Source: Escherichia coli (GTDB lineage: Bacteria; Pseudomonadota; Gammaproteobacteria; Enterobacterales; Enterobacteriaceae). From it: 8,395 nucleotides of DNA. Under the pieces are notes generated by a model that saw only the letters and a program-made list of their open reading frames with translations, was not told where the DNA came from and ran no database searches. The stretch lies in NCBI RefSeq assembly GCF_003334815.1, contig NZ_QOWO01000065.1, one strand, 5' to 3'. Each line of letters opens with the position of its first letter. Within the stretch, counting starts at the first letter, position 1. Below, in pieces: positions 4,713 to 5,611 of the stretch. Both the position numbers and the translations under genes were made by a program.

Positions 4713-4890
4713 GCCGATGAACTCGCCATCATGCGCCACTGACCCTAAGCACCGTTGTCCACAAATCCACATAAGACGAAGCCAGCGAAAAAATACCCCA
4801 ATAAAGGGTATTTTGAGCGGGAGCGCCCGCAATGACGGGGCAAGTCATTGCGGGGGCGATTGTGGAGTTGTGCGGCAACGCGTTAACCCT
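4713..4890. repeat. Direct repeat copy A (~178 bp) of an unclassified structured repeat
   Basis: Aligns by eye with 5434..5611 with about 10 mismatches. Two perfectly conserved blocks (~47 bp and ~72 bp). Contains palindromes ATACCC-N7-GGGTAT, GCGGG-AGCG-CCCGC and an 11-bp-stem hairpin CCCGCAATGAC-GGGGCAA-GTCATTGCGGG (4826..4854). Confidence 0.8.
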
Positions 4891-4932
4891 TCGATTAATC
4901 AGGTGGTATAAATTCACCACCCCACTACATGG

Positions 4933-5199
4933 TTAAAAACCACCATGCCAATAGCCAATAGTATGGTTATAGTGTGGTACAGGGGTAAATGGTGCACTGA
5001 GATCAGGTTTAGGTCTTGATGGGTCCACGTCATGGCCGCATCCTGCAATATTCAGGAACGAAAGAATAGCACAACCCACTTGGTGACCAAGTTCACCACT
5101 TGTATAACCTGGATATGAACTAAATCCCTTGGCACTTGCTTGACCTGATACAAGCATAAACATAGTAATTGCAGTAAATAGTATCTTCTTTATCTTCAT
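4933..5199 (-). CDS. Small secreted (periplasmic/exported) protein of unknown function, 88 aa
   Basis: Clear Sec signal peptide with an AxA cleavage site (MKIKKILFTAITMFMLVSGQASA|KG). Good RBS (AAGGA 7-8 nt upstream of the ATG). The ~65-aa mature part has two Cys (GCAILSFLNIAGCGHD) and a C-terminal aromatic/Gly tail (YNHTIGYWHGGF). I do not recognise a family. Confidence 0.6.
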   Translation of the reverse strand: MKIKKILFTAITMFMLVSGQASAKGFSSYPGYTSGELGHQVGCAILSFLNIAGCGHDVDPSRPKPDLSAPFTPVPHYNHTIGYWHGGF

Positions 5200-5433
5200 G
5201 CTTTTTTCCTTGCTTCTTTCTATTTTAAGTGGTTATAGACATAACAGGCTGATATCTATGGCGATAACTCCATAATCAAGCACAGGAAAAAGAAAAATTA
5301 TCACAGGATTGTTACGGCTTTATTACAACTCACATTTATACAACGAACGCCGATGTAAACGGCGCTCGGAATATTTTAGCGGCGGGACACGCCGTTCTTG
5401 CTTGTGGAGGGATGTCAAATTTACGGCCTGACT

Positions 5434-5611
5434 GCGGATGAATTGACCATCATGCGCCACTGACCCTAAGCACCGTTGTCCACAAATCCACATGAGACAA
5501 AGCCAGCGATAAAATACCCCAACAACGGGTATTTTGAGCGGGAGCGCCCGCAATGACGGGGCAAGTCATTGCGGGGGCGATTGTGGAGTTGTGCGGCATC
5601 GCGTTAACTCA
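5434..5611. repeat. Direct repeat copy B (~178 bp), same family as 4713..4890
   Basis: Same alignment as copy A. The identical 11-bp-stem hairpin lies at 5547..5575. Substitutions between copies fall in the 5' flank and in the loop of ATACCC-loop-GGGTAT (CAATAAA versus CAACAAC), leaving the stems intact. The copy ends about 70 bp from the inferred IS91 left end. Confidence 0.8.

Follow-up and report, generated by a model that had tools for sequence, protein, structure and literature searches.

Direct repeats of an Escherichia coli IncFII plasmid carry a three-way-junction element with a DnaA-box-like stem that recurs on conjugative plasmids

Introduction

The original A site comes from R6K, an IncX plasmid, and RSF1010 carries ssiA and ssiB, paired single-strand initiation hairpins on opposite strands, which are ~40-nt sites in oriV used with a plasmid-encoded primase. 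The start of the complementary strand on entering plasmid single-stranded DNA (ssDNA) is poorly understood outside F and IncI1, and few signals (Frpo/ssi) are defined. According to the summary in PMC6127211, a DnaA-box hairpin on ssDNA supports DnaA-dependent DnaB loading and priming (Masai 1990; Masai & Arai 1995; Carr & Kaguni 2002). For the STAXI motif (RF01728), the describing paper did not decide between a role as RNA and one as ssDNA (Weinberg et al. 2010, PMC2864571). Here, a stretch of 8,395 nt from Escherichia coli (contig NZ_QOWO01000065.1 of assembly GCF_003334815.1; referred to as the window, to which coordinates refer unless another record is named) was analysed. It carries two direct repeats, copies A and B, each of which holds a structured element that was compared with its relatives on other plasmids and with the systems above.

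Repeats and gene remnants

A single long direct-repeat family was returned by the repeat finder over the window. Its two copies align without gaps at 93.4% identity, with mismatches at copy A positions 4715, 4722, 4724, 4725, 4773, 4778, 4789, 4802, 4805, 4878, 4888 and 4890. An earlier note on this DNA had placed the repeats at 4713-4890 and 5434-5611 with about 10 mismatches; these coordinates were correct within 1-3 nt, and the actual number of mismatches is 12. The repeats and their parts are as follows.

4712..4893, + strand: direct repeat copy A, 182 nt, reference copy
5433..5614, + strand: direct repeat copy B, 182 nt
4668..4742, + strand: 3' remnant of an Rpn/YhgA-family (PD-(D/E)XK) nuclease gene ending in KGIDSETITSITGISADELAIMRH, stop codon 4740-4742; its last 31 nt are the left end of copy A
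5421..5463, + strand: shorter Rpn 3' remnant ending in IYGLTADELTIMRH, stop codon 5461-5463, recognised from its sequence and the alignment with Plesiomonas plasmid L002; left end of copy B
4748..4884, + strand: structured element A, three-way junction; closing stem 4753-4771/4861-4880, hairpin 1 (extended) 4782-4821, hairpin 2 4823-4857; 165 bits with the covariance model
5469..5605, + strand: structured element B, three-way junction; closing stem 5474-5492/5582-5601, hairpin 1 5503-5542, hairpin 2 5544-5578

Each repeat is very probably a composite of the tail of an Rpn-family nuclease gene (~10 codons and the stop), a few bases and a three-way-junction element of ~137 nt, which belongs to an unannotated family on Enterobacterales conjugative plasmids and integrative and conjugative elements (ICEs). 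For the gene tails, a Plesiomonas shigelloides plasmid (L002) was used for comparison, on which a 222-aa open reading frame (ORF) stops just ahead of a homologous copy of the element. This Rpn fragment scored 130 bits on TIGR01784 (cut-off 52), and the translation of window 4650-4739 matched its last 30 residues at 67% identity over 30 aa (E 1e-11). DNA homology between the window and L002 starts at 4668 and continues to 5675. The earlier note had named identity with an annotated gene fragment as an outcome that would speak against its reading; this applies in part, to the left 30 nt (Rpn C-terminus and stop) only. A protein-coding repeat was rejected: every frame of the element is stopped in at least one copy, and no frame is open throughout all copies. 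The element as an intrinsic part of rpn genes was likewise rejected, the closest Rpn homologues (Edwardsiella, Serratia, Yersinia) being without it downstream.

Four of the 12 mismatches between A and B fall within the left, rpn-coding 31 nt and six are spread across the next 142 nt. Since the mismatches are densest in the rpn-coding part, two separately derived gene tails are suggested and not a recent duplication. The sequences suggest that the copies are the tails of two different rpn genes with the same element behind each, and both probably arrived as fragments of an IncX-like plasmid along with these tails. In other plasmids copy A bears B-type bases: in L008 (6307-6488) it is 96% identical to B, and in pJNE25-005_2 (L004 6001-6182) a mixed pattern is seen. 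These bases suggest gene conversion between the two direct repeats.

Fold and covariation

In both copies a closing stem of 19-20 bp, absent from the earlier note, encloses the two inner hairpins, by which a three-way junction is formed. Folding with RNA parameters gave -64 kcal/mol for A and -61 kcal/mol for B (z -7.6 and -6.9), and folding of the + strand with DNA parameters gave -38.2 and -34.6 kcal/mol (z -7.0 and -4.9). The two hairpins described before were found as stated: the ATACCC/GGGTAT stems are identical between the copies and their loops differ (mismatches 4802 and 4805), and the large hairpin GCGCCCGCAATGAC-GGGGCAA-GTCATTGCGGGGGC, of 11-14 bp, is identical in A and B. That substitutions avoid stems was also borne out, with mismatches at 5 of 43 unpaired positions of the element and at 1 of 88 paired positions (Fisher p = 0.015).

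The earlier note had further suggested selection on structure and had proposed covariation across copies and an Rfam scan as checks. Selection, here for intrastrand pairing, is supported: covariation across the family is strong. It was scored in an alignment of 17 sequences (A4) that was fitted to the covariance model and so leans toward the structure; 93.6% of its cells are standard pairs, and 121 cells at 21 pairs are changed on both sides. Shuffled alignments gave 38 +/- 5 such cells (0 of 500 reached 121) and slid-register controls 18-27. Outside this model-fitted alignment, compensations were also seen in plain MAFFT alignments and in independent folds. All helices of the element covary. 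Sequences of the outer stem differ and still pair (CGTTGTC/GGCAACG; AAATATC/GATATTT; GCTGTCC/GGGCAGC against GCTATCC/GGATAGC), and this stem diverges with compensation both between orthologous Plesiomonas copies and between Acetobacter copies. In hairpins 1 and 2, the sequence is wholly replaced between genera while pairing is retained. An intrinsic terminator was rejected, because the A/U-flanked hairpin 1 becomes a GC hairpin without U-run in Serratia and Yersinia.

In 16 of 16 copies, the + strand of the model folds at a lower energy than its complement, and the family alignment contains 22 G.T/G.U cells against 9 A.C cells; both identify the folding strand as the + strand of the window. 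For comparison with known families, Rfam 15 was searched with the window (E <= 1) and with four related loci (L045, L046, L002 and L039; E <= 0.1), and no family matched, the STAXI model RF01728 included. A near-perfect 40-bp hairpin in the interval between the type IV coupling protein gene and hns of the Buttiauxella plasmid L046 (10514-10604) gave a spurious mir-5444 match in Rfam.

Distribution of the family

Among 5426 complete E. coli genomes, the repeat was found in two, each time on an IncFII plasmid with two copies, and at 0 chromosomal places, with both near and distant search modes. This agrees with the earlier judgement that the repeat is not ERIC or REP/BIME, which would have many chromosomal copies in every E. 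coli. Further members were found with a covariance model built from seven copies. Scores of 152-168 bits were obtained for two Plesiomonas plasmids with two to three copies apiece, and of 60-95 bits for copies in Yersinia, Enterobacter, a Klebsiella ICE, Buttiauxella, Serratia and Sodalis; one copy on a Serratia contig was found by the model. A 38-nt probe covering the 5' arm and junction matched 52 PLSDB records (Serratia most, then Sodalis, Yersinia, Klebsiella, Enterobacter, Buttiauxella and Citrobacter), and all six that were examined were confirmed by the model at 68-95 bits. The family was found on about 50 Enterobacterales plasmids and ICEs. A 19-mer from the junction (TATTTTGAGCGGGAGCGCC) gave 0 matches in genome and viral contigs and, in metagenomes, the same E. 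coli plasmid and two chance matches, this probe being too specific. Motif strings of the element returned unrelated matches only in a full-text literature search.

With a pattern for both stem arms, three copies were located on an Acetobacter papayae contig. Relatives are also carried by plasmids of Acetobacter orientalis, where three tandem copies stand at 243-nt spacing, and of Acetobacter vaccinii; Acetobacter copies score 16-28 bits with the model. In this form the interior is one long hairpin and the closing stem is shared (GGCTGTCCACAAATCCAYAGG ... CCTGTGGAGTTGTGGGCAGCC). The sequence conserved from Acetobacter to E. coli is that of the closing stem with its DnaA box.

Two short-read assemblies of Plesiomonas-like plasmids are broken inside the element, at the contig ends L026 (2650-2766) and L027 (1356-1472), as expected of a repeat present in more than one copy.

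Genomic context

Family copies are intergenic, mostly 3-50 nt past a stop codon. The genes recurring beside them are ssb, topB, hns/hha/ymoA and ArdC-like antirestriction genes, and in Acetobacter also MobF/TraA relaxase genes. Sense-oriented copies follow rpn (three cases), higA, a 65-aa gene, ArdC-like genes (two cases), topB and, at ~100 nt, hha; antisense copies were seen in five or more cases. Inverted pairs in four plasmids bracket DnaJ-domain genes or hha-hns-topB-ssb, and paired copies are 2-6.5 kb apart. The ~135 nt of the element are blank in all inspected records but one, where an ORF call overlaps them.

These positions bear on a structured RNA as an explanation, for which the + strand would be transcribed, usually as the 3' end of an upstream mRNA, and would serve as a protein-binding, processing or stabilising element of the 3' untranslated region (3'-UTR) or as a 3'-UTR-derived small RNA. 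At least eight copies start 4-20 nt past the stop of a co-oriented gene and one more ~100 nt past it, one strand is consistently favoured, U-A and U-G swap freely, and the nucleotides conserved in the junction and loops are of the kind that makes tertiary or protein contacts in RNA; STAXI, for which its authors favoured RNA, has the same gene associations. However, five or more copies (L043b, L047, L048, Plesiomonas copies 2) either run antisense to the genes on both sides or lack a co-oriented gene upstream, neither a promoter nor a terminator is conserved, Serratia and Yersinia copies lack the U-run that follows hairpin 1, and the upstream rpn genes in the window are short remnants with no evident promoter. 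An RNA also does not explain why a DnaA box is the stem sequence common to Acetobacter and Enterobacterales. A structured RNA is regarded as the main rival identity and as rather unlikely.

Other repeats and genes were noted in the same surroundings. A second hairpin repeat of ~55 nt (AGAGCAAG..CAGGCGTGCAGCAATC..GATTGCGCGCCTGCCAACCGCC; L002 6414-6465 and 8450-8505, L003 8390-8429) lies close to both Plesiomonas element copies; its orientation is unchanged between the two sites, while that of the elements is inverted. On the A. papayae contig (L038 9900-10330 and 12000-12540), an upstream module of ~650 nt is repeated before ssb and before a 148-aa gene. Each module contains a GC-rich hairpin (arms with TATAAT/TATAGA-like hexamers), an AT-rich stretch and a long conserved leader, with the DnaA-box hairpin as its distal end; from its sequence, the GC-rich hairpin is possibly a genuine single-strand promoter. 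Rpn-family genes recur near this set of plasmid 'establishment' genes (L035 3887-5516, L021 2237-3157). In Arsenophonus an Rpn gene is divergent from a DnaJ-domain gene, in Yersinia hibernica one lies beside a recombinase gene and IS91, and Rpn-like genes were found on 4741 PLSDB plasmids by tblastn.

DnaA box and proposed function

The 5' arm of the closing stem contains a perfect or imperfect DnaA box (TTWTNCACA) at the fixed element position 8, and the 3' arm contains its complement. In the window, the boxes are:

4755..4763, + strand: DnaA-box-like nonamer TTGTCCACA, 8/9 to TTWTNCACA, in the 5' arm of the closing stem of A; a second box-like nonamer, AAATCCACA, follows
5476..5484, + strand: DnaA-box-like nonamer TTGTCCACA, in the 5' arm of the closing stem of B

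Position 8 is occupied by TTATCCACA, the strongest E. coli DnaA box, in five copies (two from Yersinia, and those of the Klebsiella ICE, Buttiauxella and Serratia UMH7), by TTTTGCACA in Sodalis, and by CTGTCCACA or CTATCCACA in Acetobacter. A 9/9 match is present in 6 of the 16 enterobacterial copies and an 8/9 match in eight more, both window copies being among the latter. Across the family the first box is followed by a second box-like nonamer, AAATCCACA or ATATCCACA.

By analogy with described systems, the favoured but tentative reading of the element is a possible A-site-type (ABC-primosome) single-strand initiation signal, that is, a DnaA-box hairpin for DnaB/DnaC loading and priming. It would act in single-stranded states, either on the transferred strand in the conjugation recipient or on the lagging-strand template. 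Because the 5' arm is a DnaA box and the 3' arm its complement, folding would restore a duplex DnaA box, or two of them, on a strand that is otherwise coated with SSB. DnaA of the host would attach to the box in its folded form and recruit DnaB-DnaC, after which DnaG would prime the complementary strand. The inner hairpins would merely nucleate and hold the closing stem, so that their structure would be conserved and their sequence not. The stem sequence would be conserved across bacterial classes because the partner is a host protein, and both orientations would be tolerated because the fold of each strand shows a box in its 5' arm. An A-site-type signal could also account for the absence of promoter hexamers and for the ssb/topB/antirestriction context.

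For strand assignment, the p2010C_5028-3 record was used, in which leading-region genes, tra genes, repA and the gene for the 88-aa protein that lies between the repeats in the window are all on one sense strand. The + strand of the window corresponds to the - strand of this record, from which ssb, psiB and the antirestriction gene are transcribed. Leading-region genes are as a rule read off the strand that is transferred, so the strand transferred in conjugation of this F-like plasmid is the window + strand; A and B fold on it and would both be in working orientation.

Several observations weigh against an A-site-type signal. The window boxes match only 8/9 and face a T.G pair and a bulged C. 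Boxes with at most one mismatch occur in the whole window at chance frequency (26 found, 23.7 expected), so that the case for DnaA depends on the box keeping one position in all parts of the family. Some unpaired motifs are highly conserved and unexplained by DnaA binding (ACATGAGA..AAGCCAGYGA, ARCGGGAGCG and loops ending in CAA). Exchange of U-A and U-G in the closing stem is free (8:8 at one pair), which is more RNA-like than DNA-like, and the many sense copies 3-20 nt past a stop codon would suit a 3'-UTR RNA. Orientation relative to ssb and ardC is not uniform, and it must be assumed that either strand can act.

A single-strand promoter of the Frpo type was also considered, in which RNA polymerase would use a hairpin of the transferred strand for the gene on its 5' side; B would then drive the 88-aa gene. 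The geometry suits B and this gene as well as the Acetobacter copies and ssb, several mutually non-homologous classes of such hairpins are known, and multiple copies share one orientation. Yet no -35/-10 pair was read on either arm or on the stack of hairpin 2 and closing stem, and none is conserved in the family; the promoter scan gave one chance-level 9/12 match, in duplex B. With the covariance model, the F leading region including Frpo showed no homology, and inverted pairs are common. A promoter of this type is considered highly improbable.

With regard to the A-site-type signal, a more far-reaching version would be a new, widely distributed class of single-strand origins that depend on DnaA, carried by conjugative plasmids and ICEs across Gamma- and Alphaproteobacteria, whose junction motifs would recruit a second partner, e.g. 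plasmid SSB or topoisomerase III. This version is doubtful; if true, it would couple strand entry to complementary-strand synthesis and the expression of establishment genes, and would give a molecular role to the long-unexplained STAXI-type niche. The family provides a recognisable candidate for the complementary-strand start in IncX-like, MOBC and Acetobacter MobF plasmids, and an annotation for ~135 nt.

Surroundings of the repeats in the window

Between and beyond the repeats, the following features were located.

4933..5199, - strand: gene for an 88-aa protein with an N-terminal signal-peptide-like sequence (WP_032342288.1), no NCBIfam match
5301..5420, + strand: possible C-terminal remnant of TnpB/IS605-OrfB (NADVNGARNILAAGHAVLACGG), weak (Pfam PF07282, i-E 0.09)
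5615..5675, + strand: pyrimidine-rich native right flank of copy B, common with Plesiomonas copies 1 and outside canonical IS91
5671..7427, + strand: IS91 with orf121 (5920-6285) and tnpA (6240-7370; NF033538, 277 bits), right junction 7427/7428

The 88-aa gene lies between the repeat copies as described before. RefSeq annotates a partial hypothetical protein around 5337-5441. The left end of IS91 is approximate and was placed where other IS91 copies begin aligning: 173 E. coli records align only from window ~5670-5682 rightward, which is the canonical left end. The distance from copy B to this end, given before as about 70 bp, was measured as 56-68 nt, so that the earlier figure is right. The earlier suggestion of a subterminal IS hairpin did not hold, the element being outside canonical IS91 and present also on plasmids with no IS91 gene nearby. 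An IS91 end (terIS) or one-ended transposition was rejected as well, since the canonical end is farther right and the repeat was found in only two E. coli genomes.

For the 88-aa protein in its exact form, 139 assembly blocks are indexed. In 10 of 10 contexts examined, the order is copy A, gene, copy B, with yacAB-repA and IS91 as neighbours (IS91 is deleted in L013); in L012 and L017 the homology to copy A ends at window 4801. The far side of the ten contexts varies between type VI secretion system (T6SS)/two-partner-secretion genes, microcin B17 genes, colicin genes and Tn3.

The arrangement was examined for a recombination site or mobile module, according to which a 721-bp unit with the 88-aa gene would have been inserted or be excisable, or a repeat resembling a miniature inverted-repeat transposable element (MITE) would bracket gene modules. 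Plesiomonas P5462 has a single copy whose left flank is like that of A and whose right flank is like that of B, as if the unit had been added in E. coli. The homology of two Plesiomonas plasmids starts exactly at the left edge of the element, in four plasmids a DnaJ module or the hha-hns-topB-ssb set stands between paired copies, and A/B variants appear to be exchanged between plasmids, as in L008. Against such a unit, the flanks of 16 copies contain neither a target duplication nor a common sequence, the bases at the outer end of the stem change in compensated fashion, contrary to what transposon termini show, there is no recombinase with a consistent link to the element, and no attC core was read from the sequence. 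The rpn-coding part is where A and B diverge most, and no solo-repeat form was seen in the ten contexts or the two E. coli genomes. Such a site or module is regarded as improbable. The composite or excisable unit with cargo of the earlier note was accordingly not upheld: the ten contexts contain neither a single-copy deletion form nor other cargo, a recombinase, target duplication and conserved terminus are all missing, and the interval also holds the unrelated, weak TnpB-like remnant. The cassette-like picture in the window is an accident of two gene-tail fragments flanking a small gene. A MITE was rejected on the variable outermost termini and the lack of target-site duplication at the 16 copies. 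The topB-hns junctions of Buttiauxella and Enterobacter, a presence/absence pair, are too diverged for insertion boundaries to be placed.

The two window copies may be degenerate passengers. Taken further, A and B would be relics with no present function in this plasmid, debris carried with rpn fragments of a family that may function elsewhere. The neighbourhood is a mosaic of rpn tails, TnpB-like remnant, IS91 and a truncated T6SS sheath gene, its left side is variable (breaks at 4597, 4644 or 4801), the window DnaA boxes are imperfect, and the repeat is in just 2 of 5426 complete E. coli genomes. On the other hand, the differences between A and B still avoid paired positions (p = 0.015, as above), the model scores of both equal those of the Plesiomonas copies, the arrangement is retained in the ten contexts, and the 88-aa gene is indexed in 139 assembly blocks. 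That A and B are relics with no present function is considered improbable.

On the IS91 side, the IncFII relative L013 (WJGE01000044) lacks window 5621-7427, i.e. IS91 and 50 nt of native flank of copy B, with a junction at 5580 that reads ...CATCGGTATC|TTTTACCGG. Because the native flank is also missing, this is a deletion and not a clean empty site, and it may be an IS91-associated adjacent deletion. Near 7336-7344, close to the tnpA 3' end, the window IS91 is without ~60 nt that are present in pJNE25-005_2 (L004 8632-8695). The tnpA ORF is 376 aa here, and the copy in p2010C_5028-3 is called frameshifted by RefSeq.

Leftward, window 297-4415 carries, on this IncFII plasmid, a two-partner-secretion pair of a TPS-domain protein (297-1538) and a ShlB-type transporter (1593-3326). 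It lies beside two T6SS sheath genes, the small one intact (3939-4415; TIGR03358, 163 bits) and the large one truncated. Microcin B17 plasmids have other sequence in place of this secretion/T6SS block, from window 4597 leftward.

Comparison with described systems

Two described types of site were tried as identities of the element and rejected. An IncX (TaxC) origin of transfer (oriT) was considered because an inverted pair flanks a DnaJ-domain gene and because IncX plasmids are described in the literature as having two oriTs. The inverted repeats of pOLA52 (30691-30800/36246-36355) are an unrelated sequence with ATCCTG (nick motif YATCCTG), the covariance model gave no match in pOLA52 or an IncX3 plasmid, and in Serratia UMH7 taxC/ddp1 is far from both element copies. 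For an integron attC site, the ends of the element (5'-GTT...AAC-3' on both strands) have the opposite polarity to RYYYAAC...GTTRRRY and the core is branched; no intI was found in the window. The earlier judgement that the repeat is not attC is thereby supported.

RSF1010 ssiA/ssiB are paired like some copies of the element, but they use a plasmid primase, whereas host DnaA is presumed for the element, and the element pairs stand 2-6.5 kb apart. Frpo/ssi of F and IncI1 are likewise large plasmid hairpins near ssb and antirestriction genes, and both they and the element may prime the complementary strand; Frpo/ssi rebuild -35/-10 hexamers in their stem, while the element is without them, occurs in both orientations and has no similarity to the F leading region. 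STAXI shares with the element its occurrence on Enterobacterales mobile elements, often repeated, near ssb, topoisomerase, antirestriction and integrase genes (PMC2864571). It consists of tandem small pseudoknots with UUCG loops, in contrast to the element with its three-way junction and DnaA-box stem.

Closest in kind is the classical A site, a stable hairpin in single-stranded plasmid DNA with a DnaA box in its duplex stem, to which the element would correspond if it primes. The classical site is a simple hairpin with one box, whereas the element is a three-way junction of 115-137 nt with two adjacent box-like nonamers and conserved unpaired motifs, and its box is 8/9 in the window copies. 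Were the family homologous to the R6K A site, its novelty would be reduced to annotation. Hairpins for single-strand initiation are an already known kind, as are structured motifs in the establishment regions of plasmids; a three-way-junction family with a DnaA-box stem across two proteobacterial classes, for which Rfam gave no match and the full-text search no paper with its motif strings, appears to be undescribed.

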